A DNA stretch of 63,864 nt, the filler included. It is 8 parts of 8 records of this genome, joined end to end, with 100 filler letters (N's around TTAATTAATTAA, not from the genome) between each part and the next. Parts side by side here need not be neighbours in the genome. Positions count along the whole stretch, not along the records: positions 12,485 to 20,601 come from SRR31156797_42593; 7 more parts are not named here. One strand, 5' to 3'. The notes beneath the pieces are model-generated. The model had not been told where the DNA came from, made no database searches, and was given only the letters and a program-made list of their open reading frames with translations. Shown here one piece after another: positions 3,157 to 58,750 of the stretch. A program made the translations under genes and the position numbers. Within the stretch, counting starts at the first letter, position 1; each line of letters opens with the position of its first letter.

Positions 3157-3576
3157 ATGCTGAACATCTCCGCCGCCCGTCGCAAAAATCGCTCAACAGC
3201 GGAACTGAACATCGCTCCGTTGATCGATATGGTTTTTATTCTGCTGATCTTTTTCCTGGTCAACACCTCCTTTGTAAAAGAGACGGGGATCGAGGTCTCC
3301 AGACCCACGGCATCCACGGCGGTGGTAAAAAACAAGGCGACGATTTTGATCGCCATCGACCAGAACAACCGCGTTTTTATGGATCACAGGGAAATCGATC
3401 CCCGCGCTGTACGGGCCAACGTGGAACGCGCTCTGGCGGAGAATCCCGAAGGTTCCGTCGTTGTCGTGGCCGACAAAGCCAGCAGCACGGGAACGGCTAT
3501 CCAGGTGATGGACGGATGCCGCAGGGCAGGAGCGACAACAGTCTCTCTGGCGGCCAGCGTACCGCAGGCCGGGTGA
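3157..3576 (+). CDS. exbD: Biopolymer transport protein ExbD
   Basis: LNIAPLIDMVFILLIFF transmembrane segment with the conserved Asp; ADK...VMD motif. Confidence 0.92.
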   Translation: MLNISAARRKNRSTAELNIAPLIDMVFILLIFFLVNTSFVKETGIEVSRPTASTAVVKNKATILIAIDQNNRVFMDHREIDPRAVRANVERALAENPEGSVVVVADKASSTGTAIQVMDGCRRAGATTVSLAASVPQAG

Positions 3577-3708: not shown

Positions 3709-4413
3709 ATGTCAGCCCAGACCAAACACTATGACTATTTCGAGTTCCTGACACGTCGCACCTGGCTGACCTGGCTGTGGTCAGGTCTTGTGGCCATCGG
3801 ACTGAACCTTGGCATGTTCCTCCTTCTGCCTCTCATGGTTGATCCGAACCCGCCAAAATCAAACTTGGAGGAATTGATTCCCCATGTAAACGTGATTCGG
3901 ATCAAAAAGCATGATACGCACGTCCGCCACAAACCTGTCGAGCCGCCGAAACCGCCCGAAGTCAAACCGAAACAGGCGCCGCAGAAAGCACCCAACCGGC
4001 AGATTTCTAAAAAGCTGGCCTTGCCTTTCGAAGTGAGCCCCCGTCTTCCCACCGGACCGAACAGTTTGACACTTCCACCGTGGGAAGGGGTTCCCCTGGT
4101 GGACGTAAACGTACTTCAAGGAACCTTTGAAGTGGGGCAGTTGGACGGGCCCTTGACCTCCCTGGCAAGAATCCCGCCGGTCTATCCCCTGCGGGCCAGA
4201 CGCCGGGGTATCGAAGGATGGGTAAAGGTCGCCTTTATCGTGGACAGCACCGGAAAGGTGGGTGACATCACCATTTTGGAAGCCGAACCCGCAGGTCTTT
4301 TTGAAAGCAGTGTCGAGCAATGTGTCCGTAGTTGGCGATTCAGCCCCGGTACGATTGAAGGACAACCCGTCCGGGCAAAAGTGGAAACCATCATTCGGTT
4401 CGAGTTGGAATGA
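3709..4413 (+). CDS. tonB: Energy transducer TonB
   Basis: N-terminal TM helix, Pro/Lys-rich linker and C-terminal PVYP..ARRRGIEG.V domain. Confidence 0.92.
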   Translation: MSAQTKHYDYFEFLTRRTWLTWLWSGLVAIGLNLGMFLLLPLMVDPNPPKSNLEELIPHVNVIRIKKHDTHVRHKPVEPPKPPEVKPKQAPQKAPNRQISKKLALPFEVSPRLPTGPNSLTLPPWEGVPLVDVNVLQGTFEVGQLDGPLTSLARIPPVYPLRARRRGIEGWVKVAFIVDSTGKVGDITILEAEPAGLFESSVEQCVRSWRFSPGTIEGQPVRAKVETIIRFELE

Positions 4414-5700
4414 AAAACATCATGTGCAACCTTTGCCTTCTTTTAGTGGCGATCCTTTTGGGCATGCCTGCGCAAAGCGCATTTGCAAAACAGGGAAGCC
4501 GTCAGGAGAAGGACTTGCCTTTGTCTGCCCGCATCATCCTTGTAAAGGTCAGCCCCATGATGCAATCCCGGAAATACGCGCAGGCCATCGAAACGATCCT
4601 TGCGTTTCAGGCAAAAGGCGGCCCTTTGGTTTCCAAAGATCAAGGGGACCCCAAAGGGTATCACCATCCGGAAATCTATTTTACCCTGGGAAATTGCTAT
4701 CTTCTGCAGGAGAACTTTGACCAGGCAATTGACGCCTACCGGAGAGCCTTGGAACAGAACAACCAACTTTCGACGGCCTGGTTGAATCTGGCAAAAAGCT
4801 ATTATGAGACAAACCGCCTTGCGGATGCTGCGGACTGTTTTGAAAAAGGGTATGAAACCGCCACGAAAAAAAACCCCGAAACCCTTTACTACAGTGCCGC
4901 ATCTCACATGATGGCCGGTAACAACAAACGGGCCATAAAAATTTTCAATCAGCTTTTCAGCAAACATCCGGACGCCATACGGCCGGAATGGAAAGAGCAC
5001 CTGGTGCACGCCCTTCTTGCAACGGATCAACCGCGCATCGCCCTACCCTATATCCGTGAATTGGCCCGGTCCTATACGGGCGACAAACAGATTCAATGGC
5101 AGGAGATTCTGCTCTATCAGTACCTCCAACTTGGCATGCGAAAAGAGGCATTGACGCTGGCACGAACGTTGACCCGTCAGAACCCCACGGTAGAGAAATG
5201 GTGGAAAGCGCTGGTGCATGTTCAACTGGATGCGGGCCGTCAGGAAGAAGCATTGATGGCCATGACCATCTACTCTTTCCTTTCGCCGCTGTCCATGGAA
5301 GAAAAAAAGCTGCTTGCCGATCTTGAACTGCAGGAGGGCATTCCCACCAAAGCAAGGCCACTATATGAAGCGGCGCTGAACGAGAAGCCGCAAAAGGAAA
5401 CCCTGCAGCGTCTTGTTGCAGCGTACCGGCAGTTAGGAGAATCGGAAAAGGCGCTGTCGGCCATTAACAAGTTCAACCCGGACGCCCAAGATGAAGAACT
5501 GCTCTTATTGCTGGGCGAATTGCACTATTCACGGGAAAACTTCGATCGGGCAGCTGCATTTTATAGAAAGGCTGCACAGCAAAAGGGGAGACAGGTTGGG
5601 CGTGCTTGGCTCATGGCCGGATATTCGGCCTGGCAGGGGGAGGACATCAACGCCAGCAAAAAAGCCTTTAAGAAGGCCTCTGCCTATTCAAAACAAAGAG
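4410..5700 (+). CDS. Secreted tetratricopeptide repeat protein (3' truncated by contig end)
   Basis: Signal peptide and multiple TPR-like helices; usual last gene of this Ton cluster type. Confidence 0.82.
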
Positions 5701-5800
5701 NNNNNNNNNNNNNNNNNNNNNNNNNNNNNNNNNNNNNNNNNNNNTTAATTAATTAANNNNNNNNNNNNNNNNNNNNNNNNNNNNNNNNNNNNNNNNNNNN
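5701..5800. other. Artificial contig spacer
   Basis: N-run containing TTAATTAATTAA (stops in all six frames). Confidence 0.99.
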
Positions 5801-8190: not shown

Positions 8191-8553
8191 TTAGGCGAGA
8201 ACTTCTTTTTTACTAAAAGCTTCGGCTTTGACTGTATCAAGTAGGCTGGAGAGGCAGGCCTTGACGTTTTCGCGGATATCGCCTGCTACAATGAGAAACA
8301 GTACGTCATCGCCGGGTTTGAAAACACCTTCATTGGCGTGGGTGACAATTTTATAAATCCCGGGAAGTTTTTCATGCTCCTGACGGATTTGTTCAATTTT
8401 AGCATGGTCGGTCTTGATTTCGATTCCGGTTACTTTTTCACGGGTACCTCGCGACCAGCCGCGGACGACTCCGTTATGGATCAGGATCATACCGACATTT
8501 TCGGCGAATTCAGGGTCCTGTTTGAGTTCTGCAATTTTTTTTGAAATGTCCAT
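8191..8553 (-). CDS. moaE: Molybdopterin synthase catalytic subunit MoaE-family protein (short deltaproteobacterial type)
   Basis: GMILIHNGVVR...GDD...VAGDIRE...K.E motifs; GGAGG RBS. Confidence 0.8.
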   Translation of the reverse strand: MDISKKIAELKQDPEFAENVGMILIHNGVVRGWSRGTREKVTGIEIKTDHAKIEQIRQEHEKLPGIYKIVTHANEGVFKPGDDVLFLIVAGDIRENVKACLSSLLDTVKAEAFSKKEVLA

Positions 8554-12384: not shown

Positions 12385-12484
12385 NNNNNNNNNNNNNNNN
12401 NNNNNNNNNNNNNNNNNNNNNNNNNNNNTTAATTAATTAANNNNNNNNNNNNNNNNNNNNNNNNNNNNNNNNNNNNNNNNNNNN
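12385..12484. other. Artificial contig spacer
   Basis: N-run with TTAATTAATTAA. Confidence 0.99.
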
Positions 12485-12832
12485 CCCCCAAAAAAAAATA
12501 AATATCATTTTCACCTTGGCCATAGACCTTCAGGTCAAAAAAATAATATCAAAAGTTTTCTCCTGGGCGCAGCTCCGGACATATAATTAATATTATTTTT
12601 GCTTTGAGCAACCCAAACCTGACCCTAAAAAATATTCTGACCTTATCTCGGAAATCCAAAAAAATCTTAGCCCAGTTGGATATCGCAAAAAGAAGAATTG
12701 GCAAGGCTTTTCTGTCTTTTTTGCTTGATTCGTTAAATAAACTGTGATTGTATGAAATCGATTATTCAACCGACTCTTTGTTCTATTAAAGGATCGAAGA
12801 AATAATCGAAATTATTAACATAGAGATATATC

Positions 12833-13036
12833 ATGCCAAAGACTATATTGCATAAATCGATTAAAGAGCTGTTTCAAGATGTTCCATTCTTGACGCAAGC
12901 AGATGTCGCAAAGAAGACAAACAAGGATAAAGTAAGGATTGCCGGCTTTCTCGATGCAATGGTGGAATATGGTGATTTGGCGGTCAAGAAGGTGGGGAAC
13001 TCCAAGGTTTATTATTTGAAAAAGCAAAGTAATTGA
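12833..13036 (+). CDS. Small winged-helix protein, probable regulator of the R-M operon
   Basis: 67 aa: LTQADVAKK..helix..G.L...KVGNSKVYYL wing pattern; ends 6 nt before the MTase start. Confidence 0.65.
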   Translation: MPKTILHKSIKELFQDVPFLTQADVAKKTNKDKVRIAGFLDAMVEYGDLAVKKVGNSKVYYLKKQSN

Positions 13037-13042
13037 TAAGAG

Positions 13043-14785
13043 ATGGATTTGAAAGAAGTTATAAAAGGCCTTCAAACACCTGAGAAACATGATTCTATTT
13101 GTTTTGCCAGGTCATTTACTTATGCTGTTCTAAAAGAATATTGGGATAGGTATCGGGATTCCTTAGCAACTATTAGCAAAAAACAAATCCGAAAACTTTT
13201 CAAAGAGATCAAGATAAATGAACAAACTTCGTTAGATCAAGAGATTTCTGCCAAAAAAATAGGATCTCAGTTGTGCACTAATGATGTTGTTAAAGCTGCG
13301 TATTATATTGGTAGCGTGTATACTGCTTTGTTACCGCCAAAATACAGATCTCAACATGGAATCTATTTTACACCACCTGCTTTAACTAACAGATTGATTG
13401 ATACTGCTGAAAAAGCAGGCGTTAAGTGGAAGACGGCAAAGGTATTGGACCCTGCTTCAGGCGGAGGAGCTTTTATTGCTCCTGTAGCGTTGCGGAAAAT
13501 CGAAGCACTTAAGAAACTATCTCCTCAACAGACAGTTGATCATATCAGAAAAAATCTTCATGGATTTGAGATTGATCCCTTCTCGGCATGGTTATCCCAG
13601 GTGTTCCTTGATATGGTCCTCTTAGAAATCTGTTGTTCGGTCAAGCCGATGCTTACACTTCCAAAGTGTGTCAAAATAATAGATTCTCTGGATACAAAAC
13701 CTAAAAAACCAAGGTATGACTTAGTGATAGGGAATCCCCCTTATACTAAGATCAAACTTGAACCAAAGAAGCGTGAAAAATATGAACGTAGCTTGTATGG
13801 ACATGCCAACATGTACGGGCTTTTTACAGATCAGGCTCTCCATTACACAAAAAATGAAGGAGTGATAGCTTATATTACTCCAACAAGTTTTTTATCAGGG
13901 CAGTATTTCAAAAAGCTTAGGGGCCTGCTTGGTAGCCAGGCACCACCAACTAATATTGATTTTGTAAATGACCGTTCCGAGGTTTTTGCAGGTGTTTTGC
14001 AAGAGACTTTACTTGCCACTTTTGTGAAGGGTGGTAAAAAAACGGTAGGGACTTCGAATACGCTGAGAATTAATTCTCCAGAATCTTTAGAAGTGATTGA
14101 AGCTGGGAAATACCGAATTGATCTCAAAGCTACTGATATCTGGATCATTCCGAGGACAATAGAGCAGTCTGAACTCGTTTTACAGATGGCTAAAATGCAT
14201 GAGCGGTTGAGCACTTATGGGTACACTGTAAAGACAGGGCCTCTTGTTTGGAACAGACATAAAGAACAGTTACGAAAAGTGTCTAAAAATGGTTCTTTCC
14301 CAATTATTTGGGCTGAGTCTGTAACAAGAGATGGAAAATTCAAGTTTAGAGCTGAAAAAAAAAATCATGTTCCTTATTTTAAAGTTGGTGAAAAAGACCA
14401 ATGGCTGATGGCCTATGAACCTTGCATAATTTTACAAAGGACTACGGCTAAAGAGCAGCAAAGGCGGCTAATTTCTGCGTTAATTCCCCAAAATTTCATG
14501 AAGAAACACAAATCAGCTATAATTGAGAATCATTTAAACATGATCAAACCAATTAAAAAACAGCCTGAAATTTCACCAAAAACATTGCATTTTATTCTTA
14601 ACAGCGAAATAGTAGACCAGGCTTTTCGATGTATCAATGGTTCTGTGGCAGTCTCTGCGTATGAACTTGAATCACTGCCTTTCCCTTCTTTAGAGACAGC
14701 GAGGAGAATTGAAAAAATGATTGGCGATAAGGTTGATAAAAAACTAATCTCTCAAGAGATTGAAAAAGGATATATTGATGACTGA
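13043..14785 (+). CDS. Type II N6-adenine DNA methyltransferase, gamma class (M.BsuBI/M.PstI-like)
   Basis: GIYFTP, LDPASGGGAF (motif I), GNPPY (motif IV), FR..NGS..VSA.EL C-terminus; coupled to a BsuBI/PstI-like REase. Confidence 0.9.
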   Translation: MDLKEVIKGLQTPEKHDSICFARSFTYAVLKEYWDRYRDSLATISKKQIRKLFKEIKINEQTSLDQEISAKKIGSQLCTNDVVKAAYYIGSVYTALLPPKYRSQHGIYFTPPALTNRLIDTAEKAGVKWKTAKVLDPASGGGAFIAPVALRKIEALKKLSPQQTVDHIRKNLHGFEIDPFSAWLSQVFLDMVLLEICCSVKPMLTLPKCVKIIDSLDTKPKKPRYDLVIGNPPYTKIKLEPKKREKYERSLYGHANMYGLFTDQALHYTKNEGVIAYITPTSFLSGQYFKKLRGLLGSQAPPTNIDFVNDRSEVFAGVLQETLLATFVKGGKKTVGTSNTLRINSPESLEVIEAGKYRIDLKATDIWIIPRTIEQSELVLQMAKMHERLSTYGYTVKTGPLVWNRHKEQLRKVSKNGSFPIIWAESVTRDGKFKFRAEKKNHVPYFKVGEKDQWLMAYEPCIILQRTTAKEQQRRLISALIPQNFMKKHKSAIIENHLNMIKPIKKQPEISPKTLHFILNSEIVDQAFRCINGSVAVSAYELESLPFPSLETARRIEKMIGDKVDKKLISQEIEKGYIDD

Positions 14786-15857
14786 TATGCACCCGCTGCT
14801 GACCTGGGAAGAGATTCATACTCGTTTAGAAATGATTTTTCAGGAAGGTATCCCAAACAGAGGATATTCTATCCGGGAGATGGCTGCTAAGACTGTATTC
14901 ACCATGATTTATATCGGAGCAATCGAGAAAAATGATATTTGGCTCCGACCTGACCAGGTTACTAAAATGACTGATGAACAAGCGGCCTTGGATTCCAACC
15001 AAGATCGTGCAAATTGGCTGAAATCGTCTATGAAACCCTCCAAAGTGTCCATAGACGGTAGGTGGTATGCTCAAAACACCCGTGAACCAATCCGGGATGA
15101 AACAATAAGACAGGGCCTTGCCTTGCTTGGAGCGGTTGTTGAAAAAACAGATCTACCAACGACATCCCCCAAAGGTCGTTATGCTTTACAGCTTGATTTT
15201 TCACTATTATTTCAACCCGATTTGGATGAGAGTAAACTGCAAGACCGAATTAGAAACTGGCAGACAAATAATCTATCTGCTGGTGCTCTTGCCAGGGTCA
15301 CCCTTGTGAGGAAAGCTGCAGTGGCAACAACTGGCGGGATTTTAACCACTTTTCCAAATGGCGAAACTAGAAGATTAGCTGCTGGCCCAAGTTCTATCAT
15401 TTCAAAAGCTGTTATTGAAGATTTCGCTCCAAACTACTTAATAAAACCCGCTGTTTTATGGTTGAGTGAGAGCGCTACAAAAGAGGACCGCCGAGATGCG
15501 GATCTTGCTGATGCTTTGGGCCTAAAAATAGAAGTTGATAAAAATCTTCCTGATATCATTCTTGTAGATTTAGGACCAAAAGATCCTTTGATCATTTTCA
15601 TTGAGGTGGTCGCATCAGACGGGCCAGTAAATGAAGTGCGAAAGAAAATATTTCTGAGGCTGGCAACTGATGCAGGATTCAAACAAGATCAGATAGCTTT
15701 TATAACAGCATATAAGGATCGTGAAGATCCTGCATTCAAAAAGACTTTCTCAGTGCTGGCTTGGCAATCTTTTGCCTGGTGCATGTCTGAACCAGAAAAA
15801 ATAATAGGATTGCATGTAATTCAGCAAGGACAGCACCTTACAGATTTGATTACTTGA
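14778..15857 (+). CDS. BsuBI/PstI-family type II restriction endonuclease
   Basis: WYAQNTREPIRDETIR, TTSPK.RY, PDIIL...FIEVVASDGPV...R (PD-ExK-like) and LAWQSFAW motifs; overlaps the MTase stop. Confidence 0.88.
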   Translation: MTDMHPLLTWEEIHTRLEMIFQEGIPNRGYSIREMAAKTVFTMIYIGAIEKNDIWLRPDQVTKMTDEQAALDSNQDRANWLKSSMKPSKVSIDGRWYAQNTREPIRDETIRQGLALLGAVVEKTDLPTTSPKGRYALQLDFSLLFQPDLDESKLQDRIRNWQTNNLSAGALARVTLVRKAAVATTGGILTTFPNGETRRLAAGPSSIISKAVIEDFAPNYLIKPAVLWLSESATKEDRRDADLADALGLKIEVDKNLPDIILVDLGPKDPLIIFIEVVASDGPVNEVRKKIFLRLATDAGFKQDQIAFITAYKDREDPAFKKTFSVLAWQSFAWCMSEPEKIIGLHVIQQGQHLTDLIT

Positions 15858-16038
15858 GATAATTAGACAAAGAATAACAGAAAAGTAAGAATAACAAATT
15901 AATTGACTACCATTTGATTTGCGGCAATAATCCTTTTCGTAGCGGGTATGATTTCAGTCCTATTCCTATGGATTCCAATTTTTATAGGGAATTCTTTAAT
16001 TTCAATGTTCTGCAATTATTATTCAAGGAGCATCTTTC

Positions 16039-17895
16039 ATGAGGCTAAAAAGAGTTAGGCTAAAGAATTTTCGCTGTTATAGAGAAGAAGCAACCTTCAA
16101 TATTGATGACCTCACGGTTTTTGTTGGTAGAAATGATATCGGCAAATCAACTCTTCTTGATGCCCTTCAGATCTTTTTTGAAGAGGGCAAAATTGATGCT
16201 GATGATGCTACAATCAACGGCGATAAAGAGGACGTTCGAATAGTTTGTGAATTTGAAGACTTTCCAGAAGATATCGTAATTGACACGGATTATCCAACTT
16301 CATTGGAAAAAGAATTCATGCTCAACGAAAAAAAACGGTTGGAAATTCACAAAGTTTACAACGGTGCCTTGAAAACTCCGAAACTAAAGTCAACGATAGC
16401 CGTTGCAATGCATCCAACAGATCCTGATGCAAGTGATTTGCTTCTCTTAAAAAACAAAGGACTTAAAGAGCGGGCAAAAAAAATTGGTGCGAGTCTTGAT
16501 GGTATAGATCAGAAAATAAATTCTAAGCTGAGGCAAGTAATTTGGTCTTCTATTCCGGATTTAAAAATCAGTAAGTCTGAGATTCCACTTGCTAAAGAAA
16601 CCGCCAAAACAGTTTGGGATCAGCTTAAAAAATACATGCCTAGTTATGCACTTTTTAAATCAGACAGGCAGAGTACAGACCAAGACATAGAAGCTCAAGA
16701 TCCTATGAAACAAGCCATTAAAGAAGCCATTAAGACCCAACTTGAAGAGCTCTCCGATATTGAAGACAGAGTAAATCAGCAGGTAACAGAGATAGCAAAT
16801 AAAACGGTTAAAAAATTACAAGAAATGGACCCTGAGCTTGCAGAGCAATTAACGCCCAGGTTTTCAACACCTGCATGGGCAAACGTTTTCAAAGTAAGTT
16901 TAACAGGCGATGACCAGGTCCCCATAAACAAACGGGGAAGTGGTATACGTCGATTAATCCTTTTAAATTTTTTCAGAGCGAAAGCAGAAAAGGCCGCACA
17001 TGAGAAGGGTGCGCCTAAAGTTATTTATGCGATAGAAGAACCGGAGACAAGTCAGCACCCAAACAATCAAAAAATGCTTATGAAAGCATTCCATGAGCTG
17101 GCTGCTAATCCGGATTGTCAAGTGATTTTGACAACGCATAATCCTGCTCTTGTTCGGAACGTACCGAGCAATTTGATTCGTCATATCTGCCATTCTGAAG
17201 ATAAAGAATGCCGAGACATACTTTATGGTGATGAGACCATCTATGACTCATTGATAAAGGAGCTGGGGATATTACCGGATCATGATGTAAAATTATTCAT
17301 TGGTGTTGAGGGAATTAACGACATCAACTTTTTGAAAAGAATGTCAAAAGTTTTAAATGGAAACGGTCTTGAAGTCCCAGATTTAGATGATCTTGAAAAA
17401 AAGGGACAAATTATTTTTATACCATGTGGCGGTAGTAATCTGTCTCTATGGGCATCAAGATTAGCGGGCTTAAACAGACCGGAATTTCACCTCTTTGATA
17501 GAGATGTTGAACCGCCAAAAGTATCAAAATATCAATCCGTAGTAGATTCAATAAATGAAAGAGATAATTGCATAAGTAGTCTGACCGAAAAACGAGAGAT
17601 GGAAAATTATATTCATCCCGATGCGATAGCGGCAGTGAAACCAGGCCTTAATGTATCATTCGACCCCTTTGATGACGTACCTGCAGTAGTTGCGAAAGCG
17701 GTACATGAAATCTCAGATTCAACAAAGTTGTGGGACGAAGTCAAAGAAAAGAAACAAAAGGAAAAAGCTCGTAAGGCTAAGGTGTGGTTAAATCAAGAAG
17801 CTGTGGCGAATATGACACCCGAACTGTTGCAAGCAATTGATGAAAATGGTGAAGTGATTGGATGGTTTCAAACCATTTCCAAATTCACTGAATAA
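16039..17895 (+). CDS. OLD-like ATP-dependent nuclease (ABC/AAA_15 ATPase fused to a TOPRIM domain)
   Basis: Walker A GRNDIGKS, RGSG signature, Walker B IEEPE..QHP, TTH, then VEGIND, FDRD and REMENY TOPRIM motifs. Confidence 0.85.
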   Translation: MRLKRVRLKNFRCYREEATFNIDDLTVFVGRNDIGKSTLLDALQIFFEEGKIDADDATINGDKEDVRIVCEFEDFPEDIVIDTDYPTSLEKEFMLNEKKRLEIHKVYNGALKTPKLKSTIAVAMHPTDPDASDLLLLKNKGLKERAKKIGASLDGIDQKINSKLRQVIWSSIPDLKISKSEIPLAKETAKTVWDQLKKYMPSYALFKSDRQSTDQDIEAQDPMKQAIKEAIKTQLEELSDIEDRVNQQVTEIANKTVKKLQEMDPELAEQLTPRFSTPAWANVFKVSLTGDDQVPINKRGSGIRRLILLNFFRAKAEKAAHEKGAPKVIYAIEEPETSQHPNNQKMLMKAFHELAANPDCQVILTTHNPALVRNVPSNLIRHICHSEDKECRDILYGDETIYDSLIKELGILPDHDVKLFIGVEGINDINFLKRMSKVLNGNGLEVPDLDDLEKKGQIIFIPCGGSNLSLWASRLAGLNRPEFHLFDRDVEPPKVSKYQSVVDSINERDNCISSLTEKREMENYIHPDAIAAVKPGLNVSFDPFDDVPAVVAKAVHEISDSTKLWDEVKEKKQKEKARKAKVWLNQEAVANMTPELLQAIDENGEVIGWFQTISKFTE

Positions 17896-17992
17896 AGTTA
17901 ACGATTTTCGATTTCCATGAAAATAGGCACAGACTCGTGGGGAATTCACCCTAAATGTTTAATGGAACCCAAAGTCCGGAAAACATGGCCGT

Positions 17993-18012
17993 CACCACCA
18001 TTTTTGGTGGTG
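17993..18012. repeat. Perfect inverted repeat CACCACCA-TTTT-TGGTGGTG (copy of the type-B repeat)
   Basis: Seen directly, just past the stop of the C5 MTase. The same motif recurs at 19021, 19051 and 19115. Confidence 0.85.
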
Positions 18013-18020
18013 GCACCTGG

Positions 18021-18806
18021 TTAATTGTTTACGGCCTGGGCTTTTTGCTTATCTCTTTGCCTTTGTGCCCGTTTACGGCAAGCTGGACTATCATACTTTG
18101 CCCGGCCATAAACAACACGACCGCAGCCGCATGAACAACGGTTTACAGGTTCGGCTTGAATTATTTTTGTTTGGTCTTTTTTTTTATAAAAGTCTTTCAG
18201 GATAAGGCTTGCCAGATAGCGGCCTAAAGGCAGCGGCACACCGTTGGCAATGGCCTTTTTTTTACCTTCCAGGGAAAAAAAAGGAATGTCAAAATCTTTG
18301 GGCAGACCTTGAATATCACAACATGCCCGGAAGGATCGGGCATCGTTGCCCACAACTGCCCCGCCCGAAACATTACCTTTCTTTCCTTTTATCGGGTCAA
18401 GCAATTGACCAGATAAAGAACCGAATATAAAATGGCGGTTCCTGGAAAAATCCGTAAACCAGGACAAGTCTAATTCAAATCGTTGTTGTGTGTAGCCGTC
18501 TATTTGAAAATTGGGAAAGCCCGCGACATTTTCACATAAAAACCACTGAGGCCGGGCAGCGGCCACAACCCGGCAGTATTCTTTTAACATCTCATCGCCG
18601 TATCCAGTAGGGTTACGGTTCAATTTTGAAAAATCTTGACAGGGAGGGCCACCGATTACACCGTCAAAGACACCTGGTGGCGGGGTGAAATTGCGAATAT
18701 CTCCTCCGGTGATCAGATCCGGGGAGCGAACAACACAAAACCCATTTTTTTCAAAACCCATTCCAAGCATGTCAATCCCGGGAAATAATGATAATAGCAG
18801 TTTCAT
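18021..18806 (-). CDS. Minimal DNA (cytosine-5) methyltransferase with C-terminal Cys-rich (putative Zn) tail
   Basis: SLFPGID (variant motif I), GGPPCQDFS (IV), ENV (VI), R.R (VIII), QGLP..F (IX), ANGVP (X). Only about 30 aa between VIII and IX. Tail CSCGCG...YDSPACRKRAQR. Confidence 0.85.
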   Translation of the reverse strand: MKLLLSLFPGIDMLGMGFEKNGFCVVRSPDLITGGDIRNFTPPPGVFDGVIGGPPCQDFSKLNRNPTGYGDEMLKEYCRVVAAARPQWFLCENVAGFPNFQIDGYTQQRFELDLSWFTDFSRNRHFIFGSLSGQLLDPIKGKKGNVSGGAVVGNDARSFRACCDIQGLPKDFDIPFFSLEGKKKAIANGVPLPLGRYLASLILKDFYKKKDQTKIIQAEPVNRCSCGCGRVVYGRAKYDSPACRKRAQRQRDKQKAQAVNN

Positions 18807-18829
18807 GATTTAAAAGTATCATGAAAAAT

Positions 18830-18996
18830 TGTGACTTGTCCAGGACAAAAACCGTGACAACCCGGGGAAAAGAAATGTGACCGAGCTCAGCTAAATTTTG
18901 TGACTGCCCTGGAGGAAAAACCGTGACGCATCGATCGCAAGTTATGTGACCCGCCGGCAAATAAAAGTGTGACTATCCGGATACGAAAAATGTGAC
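18830..18996 (+). repeat. Array of 8 YGTGAC anchors at exact 23-bp period with variable palindromic spacers
   Basis: GTGAC starts at 18831, 18854, 18877, 18900, 18923, 18946, 18969 and 18992. Each is preceded by an A/T tract; the 18-nt spacers all differ. Confidence 0.93.
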
Positions 18997-19020
18997 CTCA
19001 AAATTGAAATTTCCGATTGT

Positions 19021-19141
19021 TACCACCATTTTTAATGGTGTTGGATCCGTCACCACCAAAAATGGTGCTGCAGGAGAAATTTTTTTTAAACTCGATTAAA
19101 AAATTTCTGGCCATTACCACCATTTTTGGTGATAATGGCCA
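19021..19141. repeat. Three YACCACCA-N4-TGGTG-type inverted-repeat units upstream of the adenine MTase
   Basis: TACCACCATTTTTAATGGTG (19021), CACCACCAAAAATGGTGCTG (19051) and TACCACCATTTTTGGTGATA (19115, inside a larger TGGCCATTA...TAATGGCCA palindrome at 19108-19141). Confidence 0.85.
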
Positions 19142-19142
19142 T

Positions 19143-19826
19143 ATGAAAACTAAAAAAACATATCCAGGGGGGAAGGCAGGGAACGGGGTTTATCAGTCAA
19201 TTATTAACCTCATGCCCCCGCATGATACTTATATTGAAACTCACTTGGGCGGTGGTGCGATCCTTCGGAAGAAACGCCCTGCTGTTCGAAACATTGGTAT
19301 TGACATTGATTCTGCTGTAATTGATTGTTGGTCACAAAATCAGGCGTTGAATTTCAAGCTGCATAATGGGGATGCTGTAAAATTTTTGAAGCGGGAAATT
19401 TTTACAGGTCGAGTATTAGTCTATTGTGATCCTCCGTACTTGAAGAAAACCCGAAAAACCGGGAAAATATACCGGTATGAATACACCGAAAAACAACATA
19501 TAGAACTTTTGGATTGTATTAAAAAATTAAACTGCATGGTGATGATTTCCGGATATTATTCTGATCTGTATGCTGAAAAATTGGACGGGTGGAACGTCCG
19601 GACATTCCAGGCTCAAACCAGGGGAGCGAAACCAGCCACGGAATATGTTTGGTTTAATTTTGAGGAACCGATTTTGCTTCATGATCCGAAGTACATAGGC
19701 CGAGATTATCGGGAAAGGGAACGGATTAAAAAGAAGGCTGTTCGATGGGTTAAGCGGTTTGAAGCTCTTCCTAAACTTGAAAAGCAAGCTATTATGGTTG
19801 CTTTAAAAAAAAGTGGGATATTTTAA
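19143..19826 (+). CDS. Minimal Dam/D12-class N6-adenine DNA methyltransferase
   Basis: YPGGK (motif X), YIETHLGGGA (I), GIDID (II), YCDPPY (IV), MISGY and TEYVW. Very short segment between II and IV; basic helical C-terminal tail. Confidence 0.85.
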   Translation: MKTKKTYPGGKAGNGVYQSIINLMPPHDTYIETHLGGGAILRKKRPAVRNIGIDIDSAVIDCWSQNQALNFKLHNGDAVKFLKREIFTGRVLVYCDPPYLKKTRKTGKIYRYEYTEKQHIELLDCIKKLNCMVMISGYYSDLYAEKLDGWNVRTFQAQTRGAKPATEYVWFNFEEPILLHDPKYIGRDYRERERIKKKAVRWVKRFEALPKLEKQAIMVALKKSGIF

Positions 19827-20024
19827 AAAAATATCCCTTCCTTTTATAAAACGCCGTAGGCGTTCAATCAGTCTTGATGATTTTTGAAAAAAATCTACCT
19901 TATCTCCTGGGAGCAATAGAAAACCCCGAAAGGATATTTTTCCTCCGAGGTTGGGTTACAGTGCAAGCCGCAGTAAGCGGCTTGCTTCAGTTATGGGCGA
20001 AGCCCATCGAATTTTTTTAAAAAT

Positions 20025-20261
20025 TTAGCTATCGTTATTATCTATTTCATCTAGACATTTTTTTAATTCTTCATCAATAATATGTAGCTTTACCCGAAGG
20101 GCTGAAACTTCTTGCTGTAATTTTCTTTTCTGCTGCCCTAATCTTATAAAATTATTTACAACATGGGCCACCAATCCGGTCCCTGTCCGAATTTTAAGCT
20201 CCTTTTGCAAATTTGCAATCTGTTTAAGCGTATCTTTATCCCGGATTTGAACAATCCGCAT
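20025..20261 (-). CDS. Small hypothetical protein (possible ribbon-helix-helix plus coiled coil)
   Basis: 78 aa with G-rich RBS; N-terminal beta-like MRIVQIR, two helices, then a heptad-rich tail. Confidence 0.5.
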   Translation of the reverse strand: MRIVQIRDKDTLKQIANLQKELKIRTGTGLVAHVVNNFIRLGQQKRKLQQEVSALRVKLHIIDEELKKCLDEIDNNDS

Positions 20262-20601
20262 ATAATATCCCCCCCAAGGCAATAAAAAAGGTCAAAACAG
20301 GCTCCCGCTGTTCTGAGAACCTGTTTTGACCTTTTACCCTAAAACGCCTGATTTTATCAAACGCCCTTGCTTCCGGGTTTAGGAAGCATAACCCTTCTGC
20401 CCAAGGGGTTTGATACCATTTAGGGTAATTATGAATGAAAGTCAATCTTTTTAGGGCAAAAATGCTACCATTATTTTTTATTACAATTTTTAAAAAAAAA
20501 TTAAATATGCCACGATATAAAAAATATTTAACAGGGCATGATCTTGATTTTAGACCCCAAGTTCAGGATATGGCCGCATACCAGATGTTGTGGTTGGGGA
20601 T

Positions 20602-20701
20602 NNNNNNNNNNNNNNNNNNNNNNNNNNNNNNNNNNNNNNNNNNNNTTAATTAATTAANNNNNNNNNNNNNNNNNNNNNNNNNNNNNNNNNNNNNNNNNNN
20701 N
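20602..20701. other. Artificial contig spacer
   Basis: N-run with TTAATTAATTAA. Confidence 0.99.
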
Positions 20702-20974: not shown

Positions 20975-22303
20975 ATGCTGCCGCAGGAAATCATCCGCCG
21001 CAAACGCGATGGCGAAACCTTGGACGAACACGAAATCGCCCAGTTCGTCAAAGGCATCACCGATGACTCGATCAGCGAAGGACAGGCCGCCGCTTTTGCC
21101 ATGTCGGTGTTTCTCAAAGGCATGGGGCGCGAGGAAACCGTCGCCCTGACCCGCGAAATGATGAACTCGGGCACCGTGTTGGATTGGCCGGCCAAGGGGC
21201 TCGACGGCGCCATCCTCGACAAACATTCGACCGGCGGCGTCGGTGACAAGGTCAGCCTTATCCTCGGTCCGCTGATCGCCGCCTGCGGCGGTTATGTGCC
21301 GATGATCTCCGGGCGCGGCCTGGGCCATACCGGCGGAACCCTCGACAAACTCGACAGCGTTCCCGGCTATGACACGGCGCCGGACATCGATACCCTGGAC
21401 CGTGTCGTCAGAGATGCCGGCTGTGCCATCATCGGTCAGACCGCCGATCTGGCGCCGGCCGACCGGCGTCTGTATGGAATCCGCGACGTTACGGCGACGG
21501 TCGAATCGATCCCGTTGATCACGGCATCGATCCTGTCGAAAAAGCTGGCCGCCGGCCTGACCGGTCTGGTCATGGACGTGAAAACCGGATCGGGCGCCTT
21601 TGCCTTCACCTTCGAAATGGCCCACGACCTGGCGACAAGCATCGTCGAAGTCGCCAACGGCGCCGGTCTGGCGACGTCGGCCCTGATCACCGACATGAAC
21701 CAGGTTTTGGGCGACTCGGCCGGAAACGCGGTGGAAGTCATGGAATGCATAACCTACCTGAAGGGTGGGTATCGCGATCCCAGGCTGCACGAGGTGACAA
21801 TGGCCCTATGTGCCGAACTGCTGGTTACCGGCAAGATCGTTCCATCTTTGGAAAACGCGCGGGCGATGCTGAATCGCATGCTTGATTCCGGCGCCGCCGC
21901 CGAACGGTTCCAGCGCATGATCGCCGGTCTCGGCGGACCGGCCGATTTCCTGGAACGCGCTGCCAAATACTTGCCAACCGCCCCGGTCATCATGCCGGTC
22001 CAGGCAGACAAAAGCGGCTTCGTCGCCGCAATGGACACACGGAGCATCGGTATCGCCATCATCGAACTGGGCGGCGGCCGCCGCCGGGCCGACGATACCA
22101 TCGACCATGCGGTCGGGTTGAGCCGGGTCTGCCAGATCGGCGATGAAGTCGGTCCCGGAAAACCCCTTGCAGTCGTTCACGCCAACAGCGATCACGACCT
22201 GCAGCGTGCCGCCGACCGACTTTGCGCGGCGATCGAAATCGTCGAGACCGCGCCGGCGATCAATCCAACCGTCATTCAACGTGTCGGCATGGCGGCATCA
22301 TGA
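20975..22303 (+). CDS. deoA: Thymidine phosphorylase
   Basis: [26 protein letters not shown] and SILSKKLA motifs. Confidence 0.95.
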
Positions 22304-26946: not shown

Positions 26947-27046
26947 NNNNNNNNNNNNNNNNNNNNNNNNNNNNNNNNNNNNNNNNNNNNTTAATTAATT
27001 AANNNNNNNNNNNNNNNNNNNNNNNNNNNNNNNNNNNNNNNNNNNN
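26947..27046. other. Artificial contig spacer
   Basis: N-run with TTAATTAATTAA. Confidence 0.99.
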
Positions 27047-28366: not shown

Positions 28367-29992
28367 ATGAATGAAAGCAAGCCGCCGATGACCGACAATC
28401 GCGTCTACCTCTACGACTGCACCCTGCGCGACGGTGCCCAAACCCTGGGCGTCGATTTCAGCGTTCTCGACAAGCAGGTGGTATCGAGGGAACTCGACAA
28501 GATCGGTATCGACTACATCGAAGGCGGCTGGCCCGGCGCCAACCCGACCGACGACGCCTTTTTCAACGACCTGCCGAAACTGGAGCGCGGCCGGATCACC
28601 GCCTTCGGCATGACCCGCCGATCGGGCCGCAGCGCCGACAACGACCCGGGGCTTGTCGCCCTATTCACCAATCAGGCGAAAACCGTTTGCCTCGTCGGCA
28701 AGACATGGGATTTCCAGGTCGAGGTGGCCCTTGGCATCGGACTCGACGAAAACGTCACCATGATTGCCGACAGCGTTACGTCGGGAGGCAAGCGTGTCGA
28801 CGAGGTCATATTCGATGCCGAGCATTTTTTCGACGGCTACAAGGCCAATCCGGACTACGCGATCGAATGCATCAAGGCGGCTTACGACGCCGGTGCCCGC
28901 TGGGTGGTTTTGTGTGACACCAACGGCGGTACCCTGCCGCACGAAATCGAAGAGATCTGCACGGCGGTGATGAAACACATCCCGGGCCCGAACCTGGGCA
29001 TCCACTGCCACGACGATACCGGCAACGCGGCCGCCAGCAGCCAGGCCGCGGTTCGTGCCGGCGTGCGGCAAGTTCAGGGTGCGCTCAACGGCCTTGGCGA
29101 ACGGTGCGGCAATGCCAACCTGATCACGATCATTCCGTCACTGGTGCTGAAAATGGGTTTCGAGACGGGGGTATCGGCCAGCGACCTGACCCAATTGACG
29201 CATCTGTCACGCCTGTTCGACGAACACCTGAACCGGGCGCCGAATCGCAGCGCGCCTTATGTCGGCGAAACCGCCTTTGCCCACAAGGGCGGCCTTCACG
29301 CGTCCGCCGTCGAGAAGGATCCGCGCTGCTACGAGCACATTGTTCCCGAACTGGTCGGCAACAGGCGCCACATCGTGGTTTCCGATCAGGCCGGCCGTTC
29401 GAGCATCCTGGCGAGGCTTCGCGACATTGGAATCGATGTTCCCGCCGACGACCCGAAGCTGGTCGATCTTTTGGGAACGGTGAAGGCCCGGGCATTGGAA
29501 GGCTATGCCTACGACGGCGCCGAGGCCAGCTTCGAACTGCTCGCCCGCCGCGCCCTGGGCGAGGTGCCCGATTATTTCAGGCTGACCAGTTTCCGCGTTC
29601 TCGACGAACGGCGCTGGAATGCCATGGGCGAACTGATCACGCTGTCGGAAGCGACCGTCAAGCTTGAGATGAACGGCGAACCGCACATGGCGGTGGCCGA
29701 AGGCAACGGCCCGGTCAACGCCCTGGATGCCGGTTTGCGCAAGGTTCTGTTGCCGCTTTATCCTGGGCTCGAGGATCTGCGCCTGGTCGACTACAAGGTG
29801 CGCATCCTGACCCCCAACGACGGCACCCGTGCGGTCACCCGGGTGATGATCGAATCGGCCGACAGCAAGGGCGAAGTCTGGTCGACTGTCGGCGTTTCCA
29901 CCAACGTCATCGACGCTTCCTACAATGCCCTTTTCGACAGCATCGCCTACAAGCTATTCCACGCAGGTACGGTGCCGGTTGCCGAGGACTAG
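28367..29992 (+). CDS. cimA: Citramalate synthase
   Basis: YDCTLRDGAQ, YIEGGWPGANP, DAEHFFDG, HCHDD and AHKGGLH motifs plus a LeuA-type regulatory domain. Confidence 0.92.
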   Translation: MNESKPPMTDNRVYLYDCTLRDGAQTLGVDFSVLDKQVVSRELDKIGIDYIEGGWPGANPTDDAFFNDLPKLERGRITAFGMTRRSGRSADNDPGLVALFTNQAKTVCLVGKTWDFQVEVALGIGLDENVTMIADSVTSGGKRVDEVIFDAEHFFDGYKANPDYAIECIKAAYDAGARWVVLCDTNGGTLPHEIEEICTAVMKHIPGPNLGIHCHDDTGNAAASSQAAVRAGVRQVQGALNGLGERCGNANLITIIPSLVLKMGFETGVSASDLTQLTHLSRLFDEHLNRAPNRSAPYVGETAFAHKGGLHASAVEKDPRCYEHIVPELVGNRRHIVVSDQAGRSSILARLRDIGIDVPADDPKLVDLLGTVKARALEGYAYDGAEASFELLARRALGEVPDYFRLTSFRVLDERRWNAMGELITLSEATVKLEMNGEPHMAVAEGNGPVNALDAGLRKVLLPLYPGLEDLRLVDYKVRILTPNDGTRAVTRVMIESADSKGEVWSTVGVSTNVIDASYNALFDSIAYKLFHAGTVPVAED

Positions 29993-42069: not shown

Positions 42070-42169
42070 NNNNNNNNNNNNNNNNNNNNNNNNNNNNNNN
42101 NNNNNNNNNNNNNTTAATTAATTAANNNNNNNNNNNNNNNNNNNNNNNNNNNNNNNNNNNNNNNNNNNN
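42070..42169. other. Artificial contig spacer
   Basis: N-run with TTAATTAATTAA. Confidence 0.99.
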
Positions 42170-49886: not shown

Positions 49887-49986
49887 NNNNNNNNNNNNNN
49901 NNNNNNNNNNNNNNNNNNNNNNNNNNNNNNTTAATTAATTAANNNNNNNNNNNNNNNNNNNNNNNNNNNNNNNNNNNNNNNNNNNN
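49887..49986. other. Artificial contig spacer
   Basis: N-run with TTAATTAATTAA. Confidence 0.99.
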
Positions 49987-58650: not shown

Positions 58651-58750
58651 NNNNNNNNNNNNNNNNNNNNNNNNNNNNNNNNNNNNNNNNNNNNTTAATT
58701 AATTAANNNNNNNNNNNNNNNNNNNNNNNNNNNNNNNNNNNNNNNNNNNN
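58651..58750. other. Artificial contig spacer
   Basis: N-run with TTAATTAATTAA. Confidence 0.99.

Follow-up and report, generated by a model that had tools for sequence, protein, structure and literature searches.

A GTGAC array between two DNA methyltransferase genes

The window analysed here, a stretch of DNA of 63,864 nucleotides (nt) in which separate contigs are joined, carries an array of eight short anchors (GTGAC) at 18831–18996 on the + strand. The array is located in the intergenic region of 336 base pairs (bp) between a gene coding for a C5 cytosine DNA methyltransferase of 261 amino acids (aa) (18021–18806, − strand, Pfam PF00145) and a gene coding for a D12-class DNA methyltransferase of 227 aa (19143–19826, + strand, Pfam PF02086). 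The anchors start at 18831, 18854, 18877, 18900, 18923, 18946, 18969 and 18992, and the two main claims of a first-pass annotation of this DNA, namely exact 23-bp spacing and a position between two DNA methyltransferase genes, were both borne out. The pattern GTGAC-N18-GTGAC was matched seven times in the window, each time within the array, compared with a mean of 0.05 and a maximum of 1 in 100 dinucleotide-preserving shuffles, and GTGAC as a word was not enriched (73 occurrences in the window, 74.8 expected). All eight anchors were preceded by a T or C plus an A-rich tract, in line with the pyrimidine and A/T tract described previously.

The spacers had been called variable, and they do differ from each other; they are not arbitrary, however, since they form a catalogue of restriction sites. 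All seven contained a perfect classical type II restriction palindrome, and the tenth base from the G of GTGAC, i.e. the fifth base after the anchor (hereafter +5), was C in units 1–7. The sites, with the anchor start and the putative target cytosine, are TTGTCCAGGACAA (CCAGG) in unit 1 (18831, C 18840), CCCGGG in unit 2 (18854, C 18863), GAGCTC plus AGCT in unit 3 (18877, C 18886), CCTGG in unit 4 (18900, C 18909), ATCGAT overlapping CGATCG in unit 5 (18923, C 18932), GCCGGC in unit 6 (18946, C 18955) and TATCCGGATA (TCCGGA) in unit 7 (18969, C 18978), while anchor 8 (18992, + strand) has A, not C, at +5. The array holds CCWGG in both registers, inner and outer. A promoter-like sequence (TGGACA-16-GATACT, 18815–18842, − strand) faces the C5 gene, and its −35 element overlaps the CCAGG of unit 1; the consensus scan that identified it is weak evidence, as it found 2 sites with 1.3 expected in shuffles.

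A decayed tandem duplication, already discounted in the first-pass annotation, was rejected because the units are not alike throughout and Tandem Repeats Finder (minimum score 30) reported no repeat at 18831–18996, a silence that fits the divergent spacers. The earlier view that the layout is neither that of clustered regularly interspaced short palindromic repeats (CRISPR) nor that of typical iterons also held: the constant element is only 5 nt long and the spacers measure 18 nt, whereas CRISPR repeats of about 23–50 nt alternate with spacers of much the same length, and no cas gene was named by Pfam and PADLOC among the neighbours. Iterons or a replication origin were rejected on the basis of the mean spacer identity (0.40) and of the finding that a Rep gene adjoins only some of the related loci; the window contig yielded no Rep gene in a scan of open reading frames (ORFs) and Pfam families. 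The density of SmaI, SacI, ClaI, BamHI, PstI and NdeI type sites resembles a vector polylinker, and the contig is an outlier in GC content among its neighbours in the window, as would be expected if the array were an artefact, be it the remains of a tandem repeat, a product of chance or a synthetic polylinker that had contaminated the assembly. This explanation can be dismissed with near certainty, as it is refuted by the related loci: the same grammar recurs with different sites on dozens of independent contigs, viral as well as genome ones, and in the cultured phage GXT1010 (see below), and the chance expectation of 0.05, the roughly 40% identity of the spacers and the silence of Tandem Repeats Finder also argue against it.

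Recurrence and unit grammar beside C5 methyltransferase homologues

Public collections were scanned for four GTGAC at 23-bp spacing. Roughly 15 of 41 viral stretches showed divergent-spacer restriction-site arrays when judged by eye, many of the other matches being true tandem repeats, and the viral arrays contained CCWGG, ACCGGT, ATCGAT, GCWGC, GGCC, GGGCCC, GCCGGC and GAGCTC sites. At least five of them adjoined a homologue of the window C5 enzyme (43–58% identity). A query of viral contigs with the single protein found no relatives; an alignment of six sequences was used as the query instead, and 160 homologue loci were fetched. A plasmid collection yielded only two weak relatives. The family is nevertheless not uncommon: a profile search of 1.84 billion representatives identified 377 cluster representatives at E ≤ 1e-30. 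A separate 23-bp GTGAC family with the body CG..ATTCCG....ATC, often found at the ends of Beta- and Gammaproteobacteria contigs (L005, L008, L012, L015, L019, L021, L022, L026, L028, L031, L038, L040, L043, L044 and others), is unrelated to the restriction-site arrays and may represent transposon terminal repeats.

The arrays beside C5 homologues came in three styles. Exact 23-bp arrays were present at 10 of the 160 loci; 24-bp arrays lay in frame within the C5 gene at six loci (L164, L165, L245–L248), in the linker before the C-terminal tail, with the anchor read as GTG-ACN (Val-Thr); and compact clusters were built of 14-bp units in both orientations, some of them forming convergent GTGAC-N4-CCWGG-N4-GTCAC pairs with C at +5 on both strands. 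Relative to the C5 gene, arrays were located divergently upstream, co-directionally upstream, downstream or internally, and additional arrays lay kilobases away near terminase-like or structural genes. Exact 23-bp phasing and a position upstream of the gene, both part of the original description, are therefore features of some loci only, the latter being replaced elsewhere by a 3', internal or distant location. The idea that the array is a platform for the adjacent C5 enzyme fared better: GTGAC grammar was found beside or inside C5 homologue genes, which supports the linkage, though not the 23-bp phasing as a requirement. The C5 methyltransferase gene was the only gene common to all 22 loci compared, and neither Rep nor Par, which had been named as alternative partners, tracked with the arrays; a P2 gpA-type Rep, a telomere resolvase, a ParA-like protein and a PAPS-reductase-like protein were neighbours in some loci. 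The gene clusters common to the 22 loci included no cas genes, although no direct cas search was made, and no type II endonuclease that could be the cognate partner of the C5 enzyme.

Unit statistics were compiled for 29 loci with 159 units, 125 of them internal, after removal of duplicate arrays; L002, L011, L059, L099, L118, L142, L146, L148 and L292 were left out because they were genuine tandem repeats, used another register or were uncertain. L148 does follow the grammar once GTCAC is taken as its anchor. Position 10 of the internal units was C in 117, T in 7 and G in 1, positions 17–22 were A-rich, and a pyrimidine directly preceded the next anchor in 103 of the 125. A palindrome of at least 5 over position 10 was present in 102 internal units (shuffled mean 51.7, maximum 66). 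Units with T at this position either have a close relative with C or contain a site that is otherwise intact (L164 compared with L165), which hints that they could be decayed sites, as deamination of 5-methylcytosine (m5C) at C+5 would give. At locus L125, GCCGGC was present in both registers; that both registers of one site are sometimes provided points to selection by restriction enzymes to keep the sites uncut.

These figures bear on the possibility that the array is an ordinary protein-binding repeat, i.e. an operator, iteron or centromere bound by a regulator, by Rep or Par or by the enzyme itself in non-catalytic autoregulation, with the palindromes being incidental. A period of 22–23 bp and A/T-rich spacers are typical of iterons, promoter-like sites overlap unit 1 and one of the hairpins described below (hairpin 3), and the P2 gpA-type Rep, the ParA-like protein and the telomere resolvase adjoin some loci. 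We nevertheless regard this explanation as very improbable: only five bases are kept per unit, the period is not conserved, no Rep or Par gene is common across loci, and both the C at +5 (117/125) and the palindromes (102/125 vs 51.7) are left unexplained. Moreover, arrays located 3' of the gene or inside the ORF cannot be operators there.

A four-unit array was found just upstream of the C5 homologue of Pseudoalteromonas phage GXT1010 (a cultured Corticovirus, MK424903.1, our locus L332), which is annotated as a hypothetical protein. In a metagenomic relative (L159) the GXT1010 array is extended by two further complete units, one of which, absent from GXT1010, repeats the ACCGGC unit with the register shifted by 1 nt. 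The array and methyltransferase gene of GXT1010 are bracketed by near-identical GGCCGC...GCGGCC terminator-like hairpins (about 3330–3362 and 4255–4283), which may mark how the cassette was inserted. The anchors were inconsistent in their orientation relative to the gene, and a cassette flanked by polylinkers facing outward was therefore discarded as an explanation.

The C5 enzyme itself is unusually built. The Pfam PF00145 match (7.6e-15) covers residues 44–98 only, but the catalytic motifs are intact (FxGxG of motif I, PCQ of IV, ENV of VI, a QxRxR-type motif VIII, IX, and GNxVP of X), and P55, C56, Q57, E92, N93, V94, R122, R124, N188 and V190 were invariant in 47 homologues. A profile comparison with solved structures gave M.HaeIII as the best match, with positions 138–158 bridging residues 169–276 of 1dct; the C5 family thus has about 20 aa where M.HaeIII has a target-recognition domain of roughly 107 aa, and the 261-aa enzyme carries essentially no such domain between motifs VIII and IX. 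In an AlphaFold2 (AF2) model (predicted local distance difference test, pLDDT, 92.2; predicted template modelling score, pTM, 0.88) the fold matches the cores of M.HaeIII and M.HhaI with template modelling (TM) scores of about 0.62–0.66, and a poorly ordered linker is followed by a C-terminal tail consisting of a small beta-hairpin and a long basic helix. Tail residues C224, C226, C228, C243, R244, K245 and R246 were invariant across the 47 homologues, suggesting a zinc-binding knuckle plus a basic helix.

The presence of the tail went along with the presence of anchors. Homologues with both core and tail (n = 54) had on average 5.35 GTGAC-N4-C within the ORF ± 400 bp (control pattern 0.39), and at least three were counted in 39 of them. 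Complete homologues without the tail (n = 77) had a mean of 0.94 (control 0.55), and only five reached three or more, two of these being truncated ORFs of 104 and 168 aa. No stand-alone tail-like protein was found near the distant arrays.

Hairpin anchors and the D12 methyltransferase

The D12 enzyme (Pfam PF02086, 2.4e-07 over residues 69–130; PHROG 56) contains CDPPYL and HLGGGA, i.e. the DPPY catalytic motif and the S-adenosylmethionine (SAM)-binding motif, and belongs to the small amino (N6-A/N4-C type) class. It is a frequent and sometimes fused partner of the C5 enzyme: among the C5 loci, tblastn gave matches at E ≤ 1e-5 in 29 rows, some of which are the same record twice, and eight of ten long library proteins tested were tail-bearing C5–D12 fusions in either domain order (P0003, P0013, P0028, P0044, P0047, P0048, P0085 and P0124). 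These natural fusions support a functional pairing of both enzymes.

Around the two genes of the window, CACCA/TGGTG hairpins gave six pattern matches at four places, compared with 0.18 expected. Hairpin 1 (19024–19053, CACCA-TTTTTAA-TGGTG) is followed by TTGG and then by the A (19045) of a GGATCC site (19043–19048); on the bottom strand a GTGAC (19053–19049) has the cytosine opposite G19044 as its +5 base, so that this BamHI-type site is anchored from both sides. Hairpin 2 (19054–19073, + strand, CACCA-AAAA-TGGTG) is followed by CTGC and the A (19072) of CTGCAG (19068–19073). Hairpin 3 forms part of a 34-bp palindrome (19108–19141, TGGCCATTA-CCACCA-TTTT-TGGTG-ATAATGGCCA) with the neighbouring sites TGGCCA and CATATG, which overlaps a promoter-like TGGCCA-17-GATAAT just ahead of the D12 ATG, from the same weak scan. 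Hairpin 4 (17993–18012, CACCA-N-TGGTG), 12 nt past the stop codon of the C5 gene, is followed by GTGG and the C of GGCACC.

A clearer run was present at locus L162 (2114–2283), where six CATAG-N10-CTATG hairpins with spacers of 8–13 nt lie upstream of a D12 gene. The fifth base outward from the stem end was A or C on 11 of 12 sides, and fell, with its position within the site in brackets, in GGTACC (A4), CTGCAG (A5), AGTACT (A4), CTCGAG (A5), GGATCC (A3 or C5), TGGCCA (C4, on both strands) and CAGCTG (C4). The +5 bases in hairpin-anchored sites are positions that we take to be methylated by the KpnI, PstI, XhoI, BamHI and PvuII methyltransferases. A second class of arrays, with inverted-repeat anchors and A or C at +5 on both strands, thus appears to serve the D12 enzyme. 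As the hairpin anchors are used in both directions, recognition of double-stranded or cruciform DNA is most likely, rather than of a transcript. Guide-RNA or box C/D-like "N+5" ideas were rejected, with both the strand geometry and the bidirectional use of anchors against them. Runs of hairpins plus sites with other stems (ATCG/CGAT-type in L166 and L167) were also seen in L166 (5690–5800), L167 (about 4520–4545) and L168 (1462–1700); hairpin runs beyond the window and L162 were judged by eye.

The array-bearing piece of the window (12485–20601, 8.1 kb) has a GC content of 39.5% and is unrelated to its flanking pieces (about 60% GC). Linkers of the form N44-TTAATTAATTAA-N44 join the contigs at 5701–5800, 12385–12484, 20602–20701, 26947–27046, 42070–42169, 49887–49986 and 58651–58750, and the pieces fall into two GC groups (about 0.38–0.45 and 0.58–0.66), so the bin may be mixed. 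Since the pieces are separate contigs of strongly differing GC content, genes across linkers are uninformative on each other. At lower coordinates than the C5 gene on the 8.1-kb piece, Pfam and PADLOC identified a BsuBI/PstI-type restriction-modification pair (methyltransferase 13043–14785, nuclease 14760–15857) and an AriA-like (PARIS) AAA_15 ATPase of 618 aa (16039–17895, + strand; best PADLOC match AriA, 7.5e-67, with matches also to Old and GajA-like proteins). The nuclease is paired with a methyltransferase other than the C5 enzyme. None of these genes was present at the other methyltransferase loci, and the group resembles a prophage or satellite defence hotspot. An unassigned ORF of 85 aa follows the D12 gene.

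Site avoidance, proposed anchor-directed methylation and known systems

Whole phage records showed the same bias towards C at +5: GTGAC-N4-C occurred 29, 33, 14, 15 and 37 times in five records, the reversed pattern 7, 14, 0, 2 and 14 times. In two low-GC records (G003 and G004) most GTGAC had a pyrimidine at +5 (in G004, C in 15 and T in 9 of 26), and restriction palindromes were strongly under-represented (CCWGG 3 vs 16.5 expected; GCWGC 8–10 vs about 36). The catalogued palindromes were more avoided there than others (mean z −1.9 and −2.4 vs about −1.0), and a large share of the remaining sites was anchored: 3/3 CCWGG, 3/4 CCGG and 2/2 GGWCC in G003, and 4/8 GCWGC in G004. In three high-GC records the catalogued palindromes were not clearly different from other palindromes in avoidance. 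According to a crude ORF map, 14 of the 16 in-gene anchors were in sense orientation, four of them in the methyltransferase gene. Both low-GC records also contained many isolated anchors followed by ..TA-C-AGG (e.g. GTGAC AGTA C AGG) with no classical palindrome. Paralogous array copies were found kilobases apart within one record, once inverted (G002, 14516–14645 on the + strand and 22059–22114 on the − strand) and once direct (G003, 8265–8415 and 28635–28775).

The missing recognition domain and the lack of site avoidance in the high-GC records would fit a non-specific cytosine methyltransferase acting on exported DNA, comparable to M.EcoGII, with GTGAC clusters only as high-affinity loading or buffering sites that soak up a leaky enzyme close to its gene. 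This is unlikely, as it does not account for the presence of a restriction palindrome in every unit, always in a set register, for the register-shifted duplicates or for avoidance of the sites in the low-GC phages.

The array could also be imagined as a programmable target list which, via a transcript or another template, sets the sites methylated genome-wide in a CRISPR-like manner; it would then be a heritable, editable, DNA-encoded specificity list for anti-restriction, grown by adding or register-shifting units. The arrays are tightly linked to or embedded in the methyltransferase gene, as instructions travelling with the enzyme would be, the abundant and unavoided sites of the window contig and the three high-GC records would make sense if they were protected genome-wide, and the sense-strand preference of in-gene anchors points the same way. 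We consider this very unlikely all the same. The invariant C lies on the anchor strand, so that the unit resembles a substrate and not a complement; a paired guide would, by an argument from geometry, put the target C at varying distances; the bidirectional hairpins of L162 and the GTGAC units on both strands argue for recognition of double-stranded DNA and not of a transcript; the two low-GC records hold far fewer of the catalogued sites than expected; and Rfam at a permissive threshold gave only sub-threshold chance matches.

The reading that we favour, at a probability of roughly 55%, is that the array may be the cis target set of an anchor-directed methyltransferase, i.e. a linked catalogue of restriction sites that are methylated. 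The tail of the C5 enzyme would read GTGAC and hold the catalytic core in place, and the core would methylate the anchor strand at the cytosine located five bases further 3', in any sequence context, which would appear in a methylome as a GTGACNNNNC-type m5C motif. Each unit would set a different restriction site in the register that places a methylatable C at +5, the base at +5 corresponding to the one marked by the cognate modification enzyme. The D12 enzyme would act alike from hairpin anchors, on A or C at +5, outward on both sides. The linked sites would be kept at least hemi-methylated, and hence uncleavable, wherever the element goes. Tethered methylation is the simplest mechanism that accommodates all features observed, and the purpose of the catalogue is presumably linked to restriction.

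Several points weigh against this model, in which every biochemical step is deduced from sequence. Fifteen of the 54 tail-bearing homologues have fewer than three GTGAC-N4-C within 400 bp, six of them none, and terminal anchors often lack C at +5 (C in 15 of 34). The window itself holds a bottom-strand GTGAC (17995–17991) with A, not C, at +5, and on either side of hairpin 3 the base at +5 is T instead of A or C. The methylation positions used for comparison (KpnI, PstI, XhoI, BamHI, PvuII, HaeIII, AluI, HpaII/MspI and Dcm) are those we assume for these enzymes. Outside the arrays, the window contig (with 22 CCWGG and 24 CCGG elsewhere on the 8.1-kb piece) and the three high-GC records (in G001, 347 CCGG observed vs 336 expected) contain the catalogued sites in abundance and show no avoidance of them, so that the arrays cannot protect these genomes, and cis-only methylation brings no obvious benefit. 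Some units are methylatable on both strands, which is a poor fit to a hemi-methylated decoy. The sites are clearly kept on purpose, although protection in cis cannot shield genomes with hundreds of unanchored copies. As to the payoff, we tentatively place first, though itself at a rather low probability, the possibility that the sites act as uncleavable, self-looking decoys or cis sensors towards host restriction enzymes; a poison-and-antidote linkage at the level of the gene, in which loss of the methyltransferase would be lethal under restriction, is somewhat more doubtful. Autoregulation, which would concern only the few promoter-overlapping sites, ranks after these two, and a true specificity programme comes last, at low probability.

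If the favoured model is correct, this would be a natural methyltransferase with split specificity, in which a fixed anchor is read by the tail and a context-blind core acts at a fixed offset. The +5 rule appears to be common to C5 and amino enzymes, which are unrelated classes. The arrays would constitute a new phage or prophage cis element, a deliberate catalogue of restriction sites in genomes that otherwise purge such sites, raising the question of what a phage gains from pre-modified restriction sites in its arms race with the host; this question is directly testable, as a cultured host–phage pair exists (Pseudoalteromonas phage GXT1010). The enzymes could also be used as compact tools to place m5C, N6-methyladenine (m6A) or N4-methylcytosine (m4C) at chosen bases. 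Neither GTGAC arrays nor anchored methyltransferases were described in the full-text literature searched, motif tables in methylome supplements lying outside its scope, and a look-up of terms in PMC11954522 and PMC12707154 found no mention of either.

Among known enzymes, M.EcoGII is a prophage-encoded orphan adenine methyltransferase described as non-specific or semi-specific (PMC12707154). The window C5 enzyme resembles it in being small and prophage-borne, with little or no intrinsic reading of sequence and no partner nuclease; in contrast to enzymes of this type, for which the passages considered describe neither an anchor motif nor a linked array, its tail co-occurs with GTGAC-N4-C clusters. 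Like CRISPR, the arrays combine a short constant element and variable spacers beside an enzyme gene, and relatives differ by whole units; unlike CRISPR, the repeat is 5 nt long (a 14–20-nt hairpin in the D12 type), the spacers of 9–18 nt are palindromic restriction sites instead of foreign DNA that has been captured, and both strands are used. Iterons are likewise direct repeats about 22–23 bp apart with A/T-rich flanks near replication genes, but they conserve most of the unit and bind Rep, whereas the arrays described here keep five to six bases and their linked gene codes for a methyltransferase.

Clusters of methylation sites are known as cis elements of phages, as in the P1 pac site with its seven Dam sites and the Mu mom promoter. 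The arrays share with these a location near phage genes and a methylatable state set by a phage or host methyltransferase; P1 pac and Mu mom repeat one site (GATC), however, while here each unit differs and the anchor is the repeated part. The SPR, phi3T, rho11s and H2 enzymes are multispecific C5 methyltransferases of Bacillus phages with the targets GGCC, CCGG, CCWGG, GAGCTC and GCNGC. The window enzyme is likewise a phage-borne orphan C5 enzyme that would cover several restriction specificities, presumably against host restriction. SPR-type enzymes have tandem recognition domains and act on all such sites; the 261 aa of the window enzyme leave no room for these domains, and about 20 aa stand in their place, so that the list of sites is carried in the protein by SPR-type enzymes and in the DNA beside the anchors by the window system. 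The closest mechanistic parallel is found in engineered fusions of methyltransferases to zinc fingers, transcription activator-like effectors (TALE) or dCas9, in which a tethered catalytic domain methylates a base at a fixed offset. Those fusions are man-made, and the window system would be a natural version that brings its own target set.

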